Source: Escherichia phage EC147. From it: DNA of 46,060 bases. The position numbers and the translations under genes are program-made. Positions 11,260 to 39,603 of the stretch are shown here, in pieces (position 1 is the first letter of the stretch; the number at the start of each line of letters is the position of its first letter). The stretch is taken from sequence record ON185589.1. One strand, given 5' to 3'. Under the pieces are notes generated by a model. It was not told the DNA's origin, did not search any database, and saw only the letters and a list, made by a program, of their open reading frames with translations.

Positions 11260-13932
11260 ATGTCAGAACAATACGCAGGCTTGACGCTTGGGGTTGATGT
11301 ATCTCAACTCAACAATGCTGTAAAGTCTTTGCAGCAATTCAAGAAGGCAAACGACGACGCAAAGGGAAGCGTTGAGGGTTTTGTTGATTCAGAGGTTGTT
11401 GCAAGACAAAGATCCAAACAACTGGCTGAGGAATTGGCAAAGCAGAAGCAAGAATTTAAAGCAATTCAGTCGGCAATAGATCCGACAGCAAGCAAAATGG
11501 ATAAGTTGCGCCAGGCTGCGACACAGCTTGATGCGCTTTGGAAAAAAGGAATTGTGCCGGATGATACATTCTTTGAGTTAGGATCAATTCTTGAGACGCA
11601 GCAAAACAAACTGATCGCAACTAAAAAGGCTCTAACTGAAGAAGGCCGCGCGGCGCTTGAGGAAGCAAAAAACAAGGCAAGGGCAGAGGCTGAGGCAAGA
11701 AAGTTTATTGCGGCATTGCAGGCGCAAGCTGACGCAGCGGAAAAAACAAAATCAGAGCTTGTCGAAATGAGAGCCGCACAACTTGGAGTTAGTGCAGAGG
11801 CCGCGCCATTTATTGCAAAAATGAAGGAGCAGGAAAAACAAGCCTCAAAACTTGGCGTTTCTATGGGGCAGTACAAGCAAGCAATGGCGCAATTGCCAAT
11901 GCAAATCACTGACGTTGTTACTTCTCTTGCTTCAGGTATGCCAGTATGGATGATCGCAATCCAGCAGGGGGGACAAATCAAGGACTCATTCGGCGGTGTT
12001 GCTAATACGTTTAAAGCGCTAATGACATTTGTCACGCCTTTAAGTGTAGGAATGACGGCACTGACTGGTGCTCTTGGTTATGCTGCATATAATGCATACA
12101 AAGCAAATGCACAATTGAAGGAGATCACAAAAACCGTTCAGGAGGCAACTGGTCTTTCTGGTGATTTTGCGGAGAGGATTGCAACTGGAATCCAGGCGCT
12201 ATCTGACAAGACAGGTGAGAGCGCCGATAATCTGGCAAAGGCATACATAAGCACTAAGGATGGAGCAACCGAGGCCATACAAAAACTCGTCGATGTTGGA
12301 TTTACCTATGACGAAGCAAAGGCAAAAGTAAACGAATACAAAAACGCATCAAGTTTTGTAAGTCTTAACAATGAAATCGCTGATCATAAAAACAAAGTTC
12401 TTGAGCTTGGCGATTCATGGTATGCGGTCTTAAAAGCAAAGCGTGATTATGCTTCACCTTCCGGCGGGCTGTTGGGGAAAGAGCTTGGTTATGTGAATCC
12501 AATGCTGCAATTTGCAAAGAACACCTATGAGGATATAGGAAAGATCGTAAAAGATGCGAATAAGGATATGGCGGAACGAGCAGCACGCATCGACAGAGAA
12601 AACCTTTCCTTAAACAGAGTTCGAGCGGCGCAAGAGGCTTTAAACAAAGCCATAGAGGATCAGAAGAACGTAGCAAGGACAGCAGACGAAGAGTTGAAAA
12701 AACGAGCGGCTGAGAACGTTGAGTTCAGGCGAAAAGAGCTTGAAGAGGCGAAGAAGGCACAGCAGCAAAAGGAAAAAGTTGGTGGAGTTGTAAAAGCACC
12801 AACAGAGCAGCTTGATAAGGAGTTATATGTTCTCAAAGCGCAACTTGAAACACTAAAAGAGCACCGAACTGTAAATGATGTTATTTCACGCCAGAGGCAA
12901 TCTTTGTGGAGCATTGAAAAGCAGATCCAGATCCTGGAGGAAGCGCAAAGCAAACGTAAGCTGACAAAAGCGGAACAGGCGTTACTAAACGAGCAAAAAG
13001 CAGTTATTGCTATGGCAAAAGAAAAGGCCGAGATAGGCGATCAGATTGTTTTGCAACAGAGAAAGAATAAGCAATACCAGGAAGGTCTTAAATTCATTCA
13101 GCAAACATCAGATGCTATTGACGCTATGAACTTGCGACAGTCTGGAGCTACAGATCTGCAAATCCAGCGAGAGCTTGAGTTGAAGAAGTTGCGAACTGAT
13201 TATGTTGCTGGCGGAGGTAGTATCGACGATGAAATTTATCAGCAGATGGAAGCAAAGCTGAAAGAGTATTACGCCACTGAGGATCAGCTAAGAAATAACT
13301 GGATTGCAGGAGCAAAAAACGCATGGGAGGTTTACGGACAAGATGCAATGGATATGTACGGAAACGTGCAAGATATTGCAAGCCAGGCGCTCAACGGTCT
13401 AACCAACCAAATGGCTACATTCCTTGCAACAGGCAAGGCAAACTTTAAGAGCTTCGCAACGTCAATCATCCAAATGATTATCCAGATGATCACGAAGATG
13501 GTTATCTTTAATGCCATATCTGGTGCGATTGGCGGTGACACTTGGACGATTGGAAGCCTTCTTAAGAATGTTGGATTTGCAACTGGTGGATACACTGGCG
13601 ACGGCGGGAAGTATGAGCCAGCAGGTGTTGTCCATAAAGGCGAGTTTGTCATGACGAAGGAGGCCACGAAGCGGATCGGAGTTGGAAACCTTTACAAAAT
13701 GATGCGCGGTTATGCAAATGGCGGCGTTGTTGGCGGAACTTCATACACTGGCGGCGGCGTTTCATCAGGAGCAACAAACCTTAATATTGGTGGGATTAGC
13801 GTTGATATTAACAACGGAAACGATCCGAAGGGGTTAGAGACTGGCGTAAAAATGATTTTCACTGATATGATTAAGCGTTCCTGTACGCAGGGTGGGGAAG
13901 TTTACGAATTTGTTATGTCTAAGCGGGGGTGA
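11260..13932 (+). CDS. tail tape measure protein
   Basis: 890 aa; long Ala/Lys/Glu/Gln-rich coiled-coil region; Gly-rich C-terminus; RBS GGAGG; follows G/GT chaperone. Confidence 0.9.
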
Positions 13933-20980: not shown

Positions 20981-21205
20981 CAGACTGCAATCAGCGTTTT
21001 TAAAGTTATCAATACTTACCCACTGAAAATTAAACGGATAGCCAGCCTTAACAAGAGTGCGGTCGCCAACTCGTTTTACTCCAAAAATAGCAACTGAATA
21101 CTGCATACCGCTATTTTCATAAATAGCCGTGCATTCACGTTTAGGCATATTTGCGCAACCAGTCAGGGTTACGGCTGCAATCAAAACGGCGATTAATTTT
21201 TTCAT
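20978..21205 (-). CDS. cor: Cor-like superinfection-exclusion lipoprotein
   Basis: 75 aa; signal peptide with lipobox LTGC; small minus-strand lipoprotein gene right after the tail genes, as in T1/phi80. Confidence 0.7.
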   Translation of the reverse strand: MKKLIAVLIAAVTLTGCANMPKRECTAIYENSGMQYSVAIFGVKRVGDRTLVKAGYPFNFQWVSIDNFKNADCSL

Positions 21206-21236
21206 CTTGGTATCTCCTTCGTTGTTGTTGGTTGCA

Positions 21237-21281
21237 ACTATACACGATCTTACAGCAGGCGTTTAGCAAAAAGTGCTATTC
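21237..21281 (-). promoter_or_regulatory. conserved 21-bp element + N18 + TATAGT (cor promoter)
   Basis: minus-strand reading ATAGCACTTTTTGCTAAAC + 18 nt + TATAGT, about 30 nt upstream of the cor ATG. Confidence 0.55.
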
Positions 21282-21339
21282 TGTTCTTTTTGCTCTCATG
21301 TGTTCTCAAATCTGCGGAGGCGTAAATTTAGAGCAAAAA

Positions 21340-21520
21340 GTAAACAACAATAGAGAGCAATATATACAGATAAATATATATAAATACATATAAATCAATA
21401 AGTTAGTGGTATATGTATTTATATCTGTTCTTTATTGTTATCTATGTTTTGTGTGATTTTGCGTGTCTGGTGATTTTTCTGTGATTATGCATGTGTCAGT
21501 GGTTATGTGTGTATATATCT
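21340..21520. repeat. AT-rich region with ATAAAT/ATATATA tracts and GTGATT-type direct repeats
   Basis: about 500 bp non-coding between cor and exonuclease; GTGATTTT-like repeats near 21453, 21470, 21481, 21499; TGTTATC at 21436. Confidence 0.5.
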
Positions 21521-21647
21521 ATATCCTGCGCAAATGGAGGAACAAGAGAACAAAAAGACAACTCGGATATTTATCAATAACTTACATGTAAGTTTTGTTA
21601 TCCAGGTTGGTGAGAACGTTGTTAGAACATAAAAAACAAAATAGCTA

Positions 21648-21675
21648 TTGACTAAACGCATCAAATAGCTACAAT
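21648..21675 (+). promoter_or_regulatory. sigma70-like promoter for the recombination operon
   Basis: TTGACT (21648-53), 16-nt spacer, TACAAT (21670-75), about 30 nt upstream of ATG 21705. Confidence 0.5.
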
Positions 21676-21704
21676 GCAGGCATACCAACAAACGAGGGCA
21701 AATC

Positions 21705-22766
21705 ATGAATAAGTTTATGGCGTACACCAGCGAAGAAATGAGCAACGAGCTTTATCACGATCCAGAAGCGTGGACGGCTGATTATGTTAGCGGTTCAAGC
21801 CTGGCGGAGATTTACAGCACATGCCCGGCAGCGTGGAAGTTCAAGCCGCGTGACGACAAGAGCAAGGCGCTAGTTTTTGGTACGCAGTCGCATACCAACT
21901 TTGAAAGCAAGGAGCTTTTCGAAAAAACCTATCGCCGTGCGCCAGCGCCAGAAGACTTTAAGGATCTGATAACCAGCCAAACGGCGCTTGCTGCAAAGCT
22001 GAAATCATTTGGCCTGAAAGGTACAACCGGAAAGACTTACCCCGAACTTATAAAAATGATGGTCGACTGCGGAGAAGACCTTAACGTCATGTGGTTAATC
22101 GACATGATCGCAGAAAGTCAGGCCAGGGCCGATGGGGTTCAGTTAATCGAAGCTAAAGATTACGATTCGTGCGTTGCAATGCGCCAGGTTCTGGAATCAA
22201 TACCGGAACATAACGCATGTATGAATAGCAAGACAGCACAACGTGAATTATCGTTGTTCGGTGAAATCAACGGCGTAAAAGTCAAAGTGCGATGCGATCA
22301 CGTTGACGTAACAAAGAACGTCACCGCAACGCTGATTGATGGTTACGATGAAAAAGGTCAACCGATTTGCCGCGATATTATTTATCCAGAGGCGATTGTG
22401 ATTACTGACTACAAAACAACAATGAGCGCTAATCCGGTTGAGTTTATGCGCCTGGCTTACAATCACGGCTATTATCTGAAAATGGCGTTGCAATGTGATT
22501 TATTCAGGAAAGCGTATCCAGAAGAAAAGCGACCTATAGTTGTGCGCCTGTTAGCGCAAGAGAAGAAAGAGCCTTACTTGCCGTTAGCTTTCCGCATGAA
22601 CAGCGAGCAATTGAAGATCGGGCGCATTCAGTACATGAGCGTAATTAACCAGTTTGCCATGTGCCAGCAACATGACGTTTGGCCTTCGTATTCAAACGGC
22701 GAGCCGGAGGTTTGCCTTGATACTCCTGATTGGGTGCGACGCCAGTTTAAGCAATATCTTATTTAA
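21705..22766 (+). CDS. PD-(D/E)xK family exonuclease (RecE-like)
   Basis: 353 aa; motif VRCDHVDV..ITDYKT fits a D..(D/E)xK nuclease core; first gene of the exonuclease-Erf-SSB cluster. Confidence 0.55.
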   Translation: MNKFMAYTSEEMSNELYHDPEAWTADYVSGSSLAEIYSTCPAAWKFKPRDDKSKALVFGTQSHTNFESKELFEKTYRRAPAPEDFKDLITSQTALAAKLKSFGLKGTTGKTYPELIKMMVDCGEDLNVMWLIDMIAESQARADGVQLIEAKDYDSCVAMRQVLESIPEHNACMNSKTAQRELSLFGEINGVKVKVRCDHVDVTKNVTATLIDGYDEKGQPICRDIIYPEAIVITDYKTTMSANPVEFMRLAYNHGYYLKMALQCDLFRKAYPEEKRPIVVRLLAQEKKEPYLPLAFRMNSEQLKIGRIQYMSVINQFAMCQQHDVWPSYSNGEPEVCLDTPDWVRRQFKQYLI

Positions 22767-22794
22767 ACAGCACAAATAGCTAAACAAATGAAAA

Positions 22795-22818
22795 ATGCGG
22801 TGTTATAATTCACCGCAT
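22795..22818 (+). other. stem-loop with TTATAATT loop
   Basis: ATGCGGTG-TTATAATT-CACCGCAT, 8-bp stem, no T-run; possible RNA processing/stability element or -10-containing site. Confidence 0.35.
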
Positions 22819-22847
22819 AAGTTAACAATAAGCGTAAGGAAATAAAC

Positions 22848-23135
22848 ATGGAAAACAAACAAGTGTCAAAGGTAGCAGTTCATATCAACAATTTTGCAAC
22901 TGGCATGGCTATGTTGCTTCGTGACTTTGTAGAGCCACTTGATCCAACAGCAGGCGAAGAAGAAATGGAGTACATCAGAAAAGTAATAGATGCAGTCGAT
23001 AACGTCGTGCTCATTGCGACAATGAGTGAAGACAACGAGGAAGCAATCAAGGCGGTAAAAGAAAGTTCTGATCGCATGATGGAAAATCTTATTAAATTAC
23101 ACACTAAAGAAGAAACAAAACACCAACAGCAATAA
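22848..23135 (+). CDS. hypothetical acidic protein
   Basis: 95 aa, RBS AAGGA; about 19 acidic vs 11 basic residues; between exonuclease and Erf. Confidence 0.5.
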   Translation: MENKQVSKVAVHINNFATGMAMLLRDFVEPLDPTAGEEEMEYIRKVIDAVDNVVLIATMSEDNEEAIKAVKESSDRMMENLIKLHTKEETKHQQQ

Positions 23136-23171
23136 GGCGGCGAAAGCCGCCATGAGTTACGGGAATTAATC

Positions 23172-23828
23172 ATGAAACTATCAGAGCAATTCGACAAGGT
23201 TTTACCAGCACTGCACAAGGCGCGCAGTTTGTTTGTAAAGGTTAAGAAGGATAAACAAAATACACACTTAAAAAACCGTTACGCTACACTTGATGCCGTT
23301 CTTGATGCAATCACTCCAGCATTGAATGATAACGAGCTAATGTTGATGCAGGATATGATTGAAAGCGAGCAACCCAACCGCATCAAAGTTGAAACAACAG
23401 TTCTGCATGTTTCCGGTCAGTGGGTGAAATTCTACGCTGAATTACCAATAGTTAAAAACGATCCTCAAGGTGTAGGATCTGCATTCACATACGCGCGTCG
23501 TTATGCAGCCGCCGCAGCATTTGGCTTAAGCCAGGCAGACGATGACGCACAGATTGCCGTTAAATCTGCAAACGACTGGAAACGTGACATTGAGAAATGC
23601 GAAAGCGTAAACGAATTACAAGAAGTGCTTAAATCAGCATGGAAGGCAAGCGATCCGGCAAGCAAACAGGTAATTAAAGAGCATTACGAAAAACGCAAGG
23701 CAGAGCTTGAGATAGGCAAAGCACGAGGATTTAATCCAGCGCAACCAAAGCAAAATCTTGCCTCGCCAGAAGTTGACACAAAAAACGACGAGCAAGTAAA
23801 ATCACAAAGTATCACTGATTTTGAATAA
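23172..23828 (+). CDS. erf: Erf-family single-strand annealing protein
   Basis: 218 aa; motif [25 protein letters not shown] matches the Erf core as remembered from P22 Erf (GATSSYARKY..FGIDDAKDAD). Confidence 0.8.
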
Positions 23829-23835
23829 TTGACAT

Positions 23836-23858
23836 GGGGCGCTTGCGCCCCTTTCTTA
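23836..23858 (+). terminator. terminator-like hairpin
   Basis: GGGGCGC-TT-GCGCCCC followed by TTTCTT. Confidence 0.5.
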
Positions 23859-23872
23859 CAGGAGAATAAATA

Positions 23873-24325
23873 ATGCATATTATTACTGGTGAGATCCGAA
23901 AAGAGCCGCGAGTAAAGCAAATGCCTAACGGCAGCACACTTTATGTGGTTGAACTTTCAGAGCGATACAAAGATAAAGATGGAAACTGGCAATATACAAA
24001 CTACAGTTTCTTTTTTAATGCTAAAACAGAAGGTCTTAAGGGTTGGTATGATGAGGCATTCCAGGTTGGCAAGGTTATTTCTGTATCTTGCGACACGCTG
24101 CGCATTGAAACGCGCGAATATAACGGAAAGATGTATTCAAGTTTAATTCCTGGTGGATTTGCAAACCTGCTATTTAGCCAGCGCGGTGAAAGCCAGCAAC
24201 AATATCAGCAGCGCACGCAAGGAGGATGGGGGCAGCCACAACAACAGAATCAACCGCAACAACCGCAACAGCCAAGACAAAGCAATCAACCTCCTATGGA
24301 CTTTGACGACGACATTCCTTTCTGA
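23873..24325 (+). CDS. ssb: single-stranded DNA-binding protein
   Basis: 150 aa; OB-fold N-terminus, Gln/Pro-rich linker, canonical acidic tail DFDDDIPF. Confidence 0.95.
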   Translation: MHIITGEIRKEPRVKQMPNGSTLYVVELSERYKDKDGNWQYTNYSFFFNAKTEGLKGWYDEAFQVGKVISVSCDTLRIETREYNGKMYSSLIPGGFANLLFSQRGESQQQYQQRTQGGWGQPQQQNQPQQPQQPRQSNQPPMDFDDDIPF

Positions 24326-24332
24326 TCAACAA

Positions 24333-24355
24333 AGGGGCATTACGCCCCTTTTTCA
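24333..24355. terminator. bidirectional terminator between ssb and minus-strand module
   Basis: AGGGGC-ATTAC-GCCCCT with flanking T/A runs. Confidence 0.6.
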
Positions 24356-24597
24356 CTTTCAGCCATCCCAAGCACGGCAATAACCTTAACAGCAATTCGC
24401 TTTGCAAGTTCAGTTTGATGAGCATTAAGTTTTCCAGTGGTCATTATTGACAACATTCCGCTCATACTACCTAGACCGTTAAAATCTGACATTGCAGATT
24501 TCATTATTGATATTGGTGAATGACCATCATCAGATATTGTGTGCGCTCTCTCTGACAGGTCTTTAACTACCTGATCAATTCCTTCACTTTTCGTCAT
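24340..24597 (-). CDS. hypothetical protein
   Basis: 85 aa, RBS AAGGA; Ser/Met/Gly-rich; last gene of the minus-strand module. Confidence 0.45.
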   Translation of the reverse strand: MTKSEGIDQVVKDLSERAHTISDDGHSPISIMKSAMSDFNGLGSMSGMLSIMTTGKLNAHQTELAKRIAVKVIAVLGMAESEKGA

Positions 24598-31031: not shown

Positions 31032-31733
31032 ATGAGCAAAGAAACCGAAGTGACATTTGAACAAATAGAACGCGAAACATTCATTGGCAATGCTCTTGCT
31101 ACTGGTGGTCATTACCAGGCTGTTAAACCAAATCAATATTTCAAAGTGACTGGCAACCGCTATAACGGCAGCAATACGCCGGACGTTGTGCGCGATTTGT
31201 GGTCTACGCCGTCTGAGGTTGTCACATGGATGGAAAGCGAATACGGTGATTATGACATCGACGCGGCTGCAAGCAAAGAAAATTCTGTATGTGAAAAATT
31301 CTACAGCAAGGAAACAAATTGCTTAAAGCGTTGGTGGGGTAGTAACAAGCATATATGGCTGAATCCGCCGTACAGCAATATAACGCCTTTCGTTAAGAAA
31401 GCGATTGAGCAAATGGAGCACAATAACCAGATCGACATTCTGTTACCTTGCGACACATCTACAGGATGGTTTTATGAGGCACAACAGAAAGCAGCGGAAA
31501 TTATCTGGATCACTGGCGAAGTTTATCAGGAGGAAGGAACAGAATATTCCCGCACAGGACGCCTTGCGTTTACCTCGGCTCTTACAGGTAAACCAGTGCA
31601 GGGCAACAACAAAGGAAGCGTTATTTTCATCATGCGCGAACTTAAAGAAGGTGAGCAGCAGAAAACGCGATACGTTAAAATCAGCGACATTTGCCCTTCG
31701 GTGGCAGACCGTCGCGCACGGAAACGGAGCTAA
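31032..31733 (+). CDS. dam: DNA N6-adenine methyltransferase (phage Dam-type)
   Basis: 233 aa; catalytic NPPY motif (WLNPPYSN); overall pattern of phage Dam-type methyltransferases. Confidence 0.8.
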   Translation: MSKETEVTFEQIERETFIGNALATGGHYQAVKPNQYFKVTGNRYNGSNTPDVVRDLWSTPSEVVTWMESEYGDYDIDAAASKENSVCEKFYSKETNCLKRWWGSNKHIWLNPPYSNITPFVKKAIEQMEHNNQIDILLPCDTSTGWFYEAQQKAAEIIWITGEVYQEEGTEYSRTGRLAFTSALTGKPVQGNNKGSVIFIMRELKEGEQQKTRYVKISDICPSVADRRARKRS

Positions 31734-39502: not shown

Positions 39503-39603
39503 CAGTTGAAATAGCTATGGCGCTTTGCTCGCTTGTCGTCTCCGCCATAATGATCATTAGAAACGGCAATCATCCAGGCATTATGGAATATTATTAACTT
39601 CAT

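Follow-up and report, generated by a model that had tools for sequence, protein, structure and literature searches.

A fast-diverging orphan gene behind a repeated promoter-like module in the recombination genes of T1-like phages

Between the exonuclease gene and the erf gene of Escherichia phage EC147 (record ON185589.1) lies a short open reading frame at positions 22848–23135, and the question it raises is whether its acidic product protects phage DNA from RecBCD, as the first-pass annotation proposed in calling it a candidate RecBCD inhibitor or DNA mimic, or whether it does something else. We refer to the gene and its product as X, and to the whole 46,060-nucleotide stretch that was analysed as the window. 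By sequence, the window is a Hanrivervirus-like phage of the T1 type (Drexlerviridae): the region around X is 94–97% identical at the nucleotide level to the Hanrivervirus phages aalborv, vojen, pSf-1 and G29-2 (Drexlerviridae, Tempevirinae), and about 95% identical to the corresponding region of the BASEL phage JakobBernoulli. Some matching records carry other host names. Those numbered MG0656xx ('Campylobacter phage A123, A139, A14b...') share 82–96% nucleotide identity with this coliphage-type Hanrivervirus/Tlsvirus region, and OR786094 ('Streptococcus phage MBBL140') matches at the protein level only, with 37% identity to X. Several of the records with Campylobacter or Streptococcus labels are marked UNVERIFIED, and it is doubtful whether these host labels are correct; contamination or a wrong assignment may lie behind them.

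The local gene order is host-specificity tail protein, Cor-like lipoprotein (minus strand), exonuclease, X, Erf and SSB, followed by convergent minus-strand genes. The features of the recombination module are as follows.

21705–22766, plus strand: RecE-like/DUF3799 (PD-(D/E)XK) exonuclease (Pfam DUF3799, E 3.3e-16; PHROG 412 'exonuclease VIII', E 3.8e-99)
22836–22840, plus strand: Shine-Dalgarno sequence AAGGA, 7 nt 5' of the ATG of X, read from the sequence
22848–23135, plus strand: gene of the small acidic protein X (open reading frame, composition, PHROG 11265, AlphaFold2 model, dN/dS)
23172–23828, plus strand: Erf-family single-strand annealing protein (Pfam ERF, E 5.9e-25; PHROG 155)
23873–24325, plus strand: phage SSB with an acidic ...DFDDDIPF tail (PHROG 44, E 3.3e-23; translation)

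The Pfam and PHROG matches of the neighbours bear out the earlier statement that X is wedged between an exonuclease and Erf. The erf gene is the next gene after X in the same transcription unit, and the SSB gene closes the module, being followed by a terminator-like hairpin at 24331–24351 that was picked up by the terminator scan.

Translation of the reading frame gives 95 residues with a pI of 4.78, and its 19 acidic (D+E) and 11 basic (K+R) residues reproduce the composition reported in the first-pass annotation. A protein search of phage records returned X homologues in 197 of them, and in the family alignment H12, Y42 and V46 are invariant, with F27, P33, R44, D51, V53, L81 and H85 nearly so; the conserved pattern can be written as DP.E..E..Y.R.V...DNV plus H12, F27, L81 and H85. 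In eight close genomes, six of whose loci came from a search with the single X protein, the pooled dN/dS of X is 0.14, as compared with 0.07 for the exonuclease and 0.06 for Erf, and the amino-acid sequence of X is under purifying selection. The AlphaFold2 model is a three-helix bundle (helices 2–28, 37–57 and 64–93) with a pLDDT of 89 and a pTM of 0.74, and the same fold (TM 0.76–0.90) is seen in independent BFVD models of four further members of the family, with identities as low as 24%. X is a genuine gene, because it has a ribosome-binding site, homologues in so many records, conserved residues, a low dN/dS and a confidently predicted fold. Its length of 95 residues is peculiar to this genome: in all seven close relatives compared for dN/dS the protein has 92 residues (279 nt), and in the window the usual family stop TAA (after ...KH) is CAA, which adds QQQ up to the next TAA at 23133–23135.

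Database names are of little help in assigning a function. Over the full length of its 96-position profile, X matches PHROG 11265 (VOG8563) with an E-value of 2.8e-40, and the name of that group, 'tail length tape measure protein', has been carried into RefSeq (e.g. NC_049829, NC_049824 and NC_021331), while GenBank depositors mostly label the protein hypothetical. We rejected a tape measure function, since X has 95 residues, is encoded in the recombination module and has no Pfam TMP match; the real tape measure protein of the window is the 890-residue product of 11260–13932, which matches Pfam TMP_2 and Tape_meas_lam_C. Judged from these matches, the name is clearly wrong for X, a propagated misannotation that should be removed from the many records that carry it. 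No Pfam (E ≤ 0.1), NCBIfam or PADLOC family was found for X. An NCBIfam match of 14 bits was dismissed as meaningless against a cut-off of 246, weak PHROG matches (antitoxin, small terminase subunit and others; E 0.007–0.07) were rejected as noise, and literature searches found no experimental work on the protein.

In order to delimit the family, we combined an alignment query with an exhaustive HMMER profile search, which widened it beyond the close relatives found by a single-sequence, word-indexed search. Among 1.84 billion representative proteins the family comprises only 25 clusters, with members of 52–110 residues except for the weakest match, a 451-residue protein (E 3e-4) that is probably spurious. 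The inspected loci lie on contigs of about 23–51 kb with T1-like gene content, and the order exonuclease, X, Erf, SSB holds in all of them, including those of the three most distant matches (E 1e-6 to 1e-9). The module is found far more widely than X, an Erf homologue being present in 1023 phage records as compared with 197 for X. The exonuclease gene adjoins erf directly, without X, in T1 and BIFF (Tunavirus), Skenny (Webervirus), ST44, JK06 and ETEP102, as well as in the Hanrivervirus-like A139. Within Warwickvirus, swan01 and SECphi27 carry X and vB_EcoS-95 does not; the indel is exactly gene-sized, and one upstream ribosome-binding site serves X where it is present and erf where it is not. 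X is thus dispensable in nature, as shown by a clean gene-sized indel even within one genus. It is also the fastest-diverging gene of the module: relatives share 24–53% identity with the X of the window, as compared with 72–81% for the exonuclease, 57–84% for Erf and 69–86% for SSB, a rate of divergence two to three times higher than that of the other three proteins.

The place between the exonuclease gene and erf is filled differently elsewhere. In JeanPiccard (Braunvirinae; locus L018, positions 1354–2110) it holds an N6-adenine methyltransferase gene, then the direct repeat described below, then an unrelated 71-residue reading frame, so that the promoter-proximal position before erf is taken, from one subfamily to another, by small genes that are not homologous. 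The slot has the character of a hotspot for accessory genes. Where X is present, its stop codon abuts or overlaps the erf start in Warwickvirus (swan01) and in a further locus, L010, an arrangement that suggests translational coupling. Such coupling is common among proteins that work together.

Upstream of X, the first-pass annotation had noticed a stable hairpin at 22795–22818 and had taken it, with a second one downstream, to suggest control at the RNA level. The upstream hairpin is real (−13.2 kcal/mol, z −4.4), and it forms part of a larger arrangement of which X is the first gene downstream.

22769–22784, plus strand: T1-like intergenic direct repeat, variant AGCACAAATAGCTAAA, upstream of and overlapping the −35-like hexamer
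22781–22809, plus strand: sigma-70-type promoter-like site, with a −35-like TAAACA at 22781–22786, a 17-nt spacer and an extended −10 TGTTATAAT at 22801–22809
22795–22818, plus strand: 8-bp inverted repeat or hairpin with the −10 element as its loop, ATGCGGTG-TTATAATT-CACCGCAT (folding and covariation)
2546, 22769, 28432, 30956, 31997, 41719, 42182, 43179 and 44175, plus strand: copies of the direct repeat
6816, 10576, 21277, 27957, 35258, 37425, 38101, 39500 and 40391, minus strand: copies of the direct repeat

The promoter scan scored the site at 22781–22809 with 10 of 12 matches and the TG present. TGTTATAAT, which is a perfect extended −10, is enclosed by the hairpin, and TGNTATAAT at this site is the only copy in the window. 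The features of a sigma-70 extended −10 promoter are found together here, namely TGnTATAAT and, at a suitable distance from it, a plausible −35 or upstream element, with conservation in relatives; G.G.TATA.T is invariant at the exonuclease–erf junction of 13 diverged relatives. From this we infer that 22781–22809 acts as a promoter. In the same 13 relatives the dyad is maintained by compensatory change, with 84.5% of cells paired as compared with 64.3% in shuffles and 22 cells changed on both sides as compared with 8.4 expected (neither value was reached in any of 500 shuffles), and with a covariation score of 0.50 against 0.18, slid controls giving at most 0.15. By itself the covariation cannot separate an RNA or DNA hairpin from a palindromic protein-binding site, or from both at once; six G-U cells in the plus-strand orientation lean slightly towards RNA made by read-through from the exonuclease gene.

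The direct repeat occurs throughout the window. The canonical form AGCACTTTTTGTTAAA is present in about 18 copies at zero or one mismatch, and at two mismatches or fewer there are 34 matches as compared with 16.4 expected, a number reached by none of 100 shuffles. A −10-like hexamer follows at a fixed offset of 19–20 nt in 16 of the 18 copies, most of which have their own copy-specific GC-rich dyad, either in the spacer or around the −10; the 42 nt 3' of the repeats have a mean MFE of −11.1 kcal/mol, as compared with −5.6 kcal/mol in random windows (Mann-Whitney p = 3e-6). A fixed −10 offset combined with a variable dyad looks like a general promoter architecture. In the accessible text of the paper on phage TLS (PMC11447400), a 21-nt intergenic direct repeat is described with its function given as unknown, and the order 'P51-gp51-DR9-gp52-T52' places the copy DR9 between gp51 and gp52. 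The element upstream of X is one copy of that repeat and TLS gp52 is the X homologue; what goes beyond the description in that text is the fixed 19–20 nt offset of the −10, the copy-specific GC-rich dyad and the covariation of the dyad across phages.

Every relative, whether or not it has X, keeps the direct repeat 3' of the exonuclease stop codon, and the whole set of repeat, dyad and −10 stands directly before erf in T1, BIFF, A139 and vB_EcoS-95, none of which has X. Since the module is found there without X, the upstream hairpin with its TTATAAT loop is part of the putative erf–ssb promoter module and not a device specific to X. RNA-level control in the form first proposed is not supported, and the hairpin is better seen as belonging to a promoter module found across the genome than as a riboregulator of X; an Rfam scan of 21200–24400 gave no match.

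Several further observations concern the same kind of element. A139 (locus L022, positions 1455–1790, compared with 22720–23230 of the window) matches through the exonuclease gene up to the direct repeat, after which it switches to a Warwickvirus-type dyad, −10 and erf with no small reading frame; this mosaic junction suggests that the direct repeats may serve as module-exchange points. The sequence AAATAGCTA occurs at 21639–21647, 21663–21671, 22774–22782 and 39509–39517 (four copies as compared with 0.47 expected, reached by none of 100 shuffles). Two of the copies flank the −35 and the −10 of the exonuclease promoter-like site (TTGACT-16-TACAAT, 21648–21675) and one lies inside the repeat upstream of X. 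Its core, ATAGCTAT, is palindromic at 21641, 29986 and 39511, and AAATAGCTA may be an operator common to the promoters of the recombination module. In T1 (locus L002, NC_005833), the annotated erf start at 31484 (ATGCACCTCAT...) lies within the promoter hairpin, in its loop and 3' arm, and an alternative ATG after GGAGAAGTTAAG, about 33 nt downstream, is the start used in the BIFF annotation; from the sequence, the latter looks like the true start of T1 erf. Finally, 21270–21640 of the window, between the Cor-like gene and the exonuclease promoter, is about 400 bp of very AT-rich non-coding sequence with runs such as ATATATACAGATAAATATATATAAATACATATAAATC and repeated TGTG/TGATTTT motifs.

The second hairpin lies directly behind X, whose extended stop TAA touches it, 23135 being the last base of the stop codon.

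23136–23151, plus strand: GC-rich hairpin GGCGGC-GAAA-GCCGCC, directly 3' of the X stop (−14.0 kcal/mol, z −4.2)

The hairpin itself stands as first described, with its coordinates shifted by one base from the 23135–23150 given initially. A hairpin is found 3' of X in most of the relatives that carry the gene, Klebsiella phage K50 having a different stem (GGGAGGC-TTTG-GCCTCCC), and it is absent where X abuts or overlaps erf, as in swan01 and L010. The TLS authors call the hairpin after gp52 the terminator T52 (PMC11447400). On the plus strand no U-tract follows either the upstream or the downstream hairpin (the tails are AAGUUAAC and AUGAGUUAC), and neither has the combination of GC-rich stem and U-tract that defines an intrinsic terminator; in the absence of a U-tract the downstream hairpin is at most a weak terminator or an RNA-stabilising stem. 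The terminator scan lists both hairpins solely as minus-strand terminator-like sites, which we rejected, as there is no gene on the minus strand that would read into either of them and relatives have not kept the T-run.

How far, then, does the protein itself resemble an inhibitor that imitates DNA? The acidity of X is real and family-wide, yet moderate. Across the family the net charge ranges from −3 to −11 and the pI from 4.6 to 5.5, so the acidic sign is conserved, and within the window X is among the most acidic 5–7% of reading frames. Per 100 residues its charge is −8.4, as compared with −5.8 for lambda Gam, −15.4 for T7 gp5.9 and −23.4 for P22 Arf. When the sequence is mapped onto the predicted helices, the acidic residues fall into two clusters, at the turns between helices 1 and 2 and between helices 2 and 3, which would put them at opposite ends of the bundle rather than along one stripe. 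There is hardly any charge on helix 1, and the swan01 lineage has not kept the second acidic cluster. This layout, taken from sequence and predicted helices, does not look typical of a mimic of the phosphate backbone. A search of the viral structure library (BFVD) with the X model matched only its own family, a fold search of the PDB gave no match, and a profile search of PDB sequences returned only designed helical proteins (E ≥ 0.03).

Taken as a whole, X looks like an ordinary orphan accessory gene, of interest for where it lies and not surprising in itself. For its role we tentatively favour an accessory protein that binds a host factor. X would then stand outside the core exonuclease and annealing machinery; close relatives whose Erf and exonuclease are nearly identical manage without it, and its divergence is far faster than theirs, so that X is unlikely to be an integral component of this machinery. 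Most likely it would act stoichiometrically through protein–protein binding, and the probable contact surface is formed by conserved residues that lie together at one end of the bundle (F27, P33, E38, Y42, R44, L81 and H85). The probable target would be a host factor that attacks or senses phage recombination and replication intermediates, candidates being a nuclease that processes DNA ends, for instance RecBCD, or a defence system that responds to these intermediates. Several considerations count against a host target. A cofactor working inside the module, on Erf or the exonuclease, would likewise show strict synteny and look vertically inherited. Counter-defence genes often move more freely from one genomic context to another than X does, and the fast divergence could mean no more than that a helical bundle is weakly constrained.

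An internal recombination cofactor is the alternative that fares best, although we consider it doubtful. Here X would resemble P22 Arf in binding Erf, the exonuclease or SSB, and would couple resection to annealing or regulate these proteins. The gene lies between exo and erf in every inspected locus, its stop codon meets or overlaps the erf start in two lineages, and its product is acidic, as Arf is. Position speaks for this alternative as well, X standing where P22 has arf and HK75 has gp33. The first-pass annotation had likened the place of X to those of lambda gam and P22 abc2; gam does precede bet in the same way, and the positional counterpart in P22 is arf, not abc2. Against this stand the lack of similarity of X to Arf or gp33, its identity of 24–53% as compared with 57–86% for the would-be partners, the close relatives that have near-identical Erf and exonuclease and no X, and the non-homologous cargo found in the same slot in another subfamily.

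It appears rather improbable that X is a mimic of the Gam or gp5.9 kind that would occupy the DNA-binding channel of RecBCD and so shield linear ends and recombination intermediates. The case for an anti-RecBCD or DNA-mimic role is essentially one of position, and as an analogy it is sound: X lies immediately upstream of an annealing-protein gene inside the recombination operon, much as gam lies before bet and 5.9 before gene 6. The net negative charge conserved across the family would agree with it, but at −8.4 per 100 residues this charge is well below the −15.4 of gp5.9, and the nearly uncharged helix 1 and the poorly conserved second cluster do not fit such a mimic, nor does the lack of sequence or profile similarity to Gam, Abc2 and gp5.9 or of any fold match in the PDB or, beyond its own family, in BFVD. 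T1 and many relatives also live without X. The window has one Chi site as compared with 0.92 expected, which agrees with the published pattern that Chi is not enriched in phages encoding a recombination module of their own (PMC12315714) and is not diagnostic; we regard the single site as uninformative. P2 Old is triggered by Gam, gp5.9 and HK75 gp33. Published tests report that it protects against lambda, Hendrixvirinae and Dhillonvirus and has a weak effect on T7 and Bas34, but do not report protection against Drexlerviridae. That Drexlerviridae are missing from the sensitive phages is a weak argument against X being a strong inhibitor of RecBCD, weak because T7, which has gp5.9, is itself barely affected, so that the assay can miss real inhibitors.

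That the reading frame has no trans-acting protein function of note and acts mainly in cis, setting the expression level of erf and ssb as a promoter-proximal leader through its translation and the hairpin behind it, would suit a dispensable first cistron with a stable hairpin after it (a terminator in the terms of the TLS authors), and is nonetheless very improbable in view of the purifying selection on the amino-acid sequence (dN/dS 0.14), the persistence of the family residue motif and of a confidently predicted fold at 25–30% identity, and the loss of the hairpin in lineages that keep X.

Returning to the accessory protein with a host target, a bolder version would have X found a new, structurally distinct family of inhibitors, restricted to T1-like phages and directed against RecBCD or another host nuclease or defence sensor that acts on recombination intermediates. 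We think this unlikely; the natural sister phages swan01 or SECphi27, compared with vB_EcoS-95, would provide a ready-made test system. T1-like phages are among the commonest coliphages and are widely used in screens of defence systems, SECphi27 being one that carries an X homologue. As it is becoming apparent that RecBCD modulators and anti-immunity genes are concentrated in recombination loci, X is a reasonable candidate for testing.

Small proteins encoded beside phage recombination genes are often RecBCD modulators, as with Gam, Abc2, gp5.9 and HK75 gp33; T7 gp5.9 and P22 Abc2 have been characterised structurally (eLife 2022, PMC9836394), and a preprint (10.64898/2026.07.10.737580) regards recombination loci as a likely reservoir of such proteins. 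We took lambda Gam, P22 Abc2, Abc1 and Arf, T7 gp5.9 and HK75 gp33 from their genome records and compared each with the X family profile using hhalign. The probabilities were 0.15% for Gam, 0.2% for Abc2, 0.2% for Abc1, 0.22% for Arf, 0.27% for gp5.9 and 0.44% for HK75 gp33, and by profile X is homologous to none of them. Homology is lacking among the known RecBCD inhibitors themselves, so that negative profile and fold searches do not refute an anti-RecBCD function. P22 Abc2 shares with X its place beside phage recombination genes; Abc2 and Abc1 differ from it in being basic (pI 8.95 and 10.28), and neither is similar in sequence. T7 gp5.9 is likewise encoded beside recombination genes, 5.9 preceding the gene 6 exonuclease, and is acidic and helical, but it has no similarity to X and is nearly twice as acidic per residue. 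P22 Arf and HK75 gp33 are closer in layout, being small, acidic and encoded immediately upstream of an Erf-family gene; they have 47–56 residues and a common SDEEFI motif, as compared with the 92–95 residues and the DPxE..E..Y.R.V...DNV pattern of X. Lambda Gam has no sequence or profile similarity to X, and a Gam-like fold was not found for it; in other respects the two are alike, both being small, mildly acidic and all-helical, encoded immediately 5' of an annealing-protein gene in the same operon, and not needed for the chemistry of recombination itself. X would accordingly be best described as a candidate functional analogue, and not a homologue, of the Gam/Abc/Arf class of recombination-module accessories.
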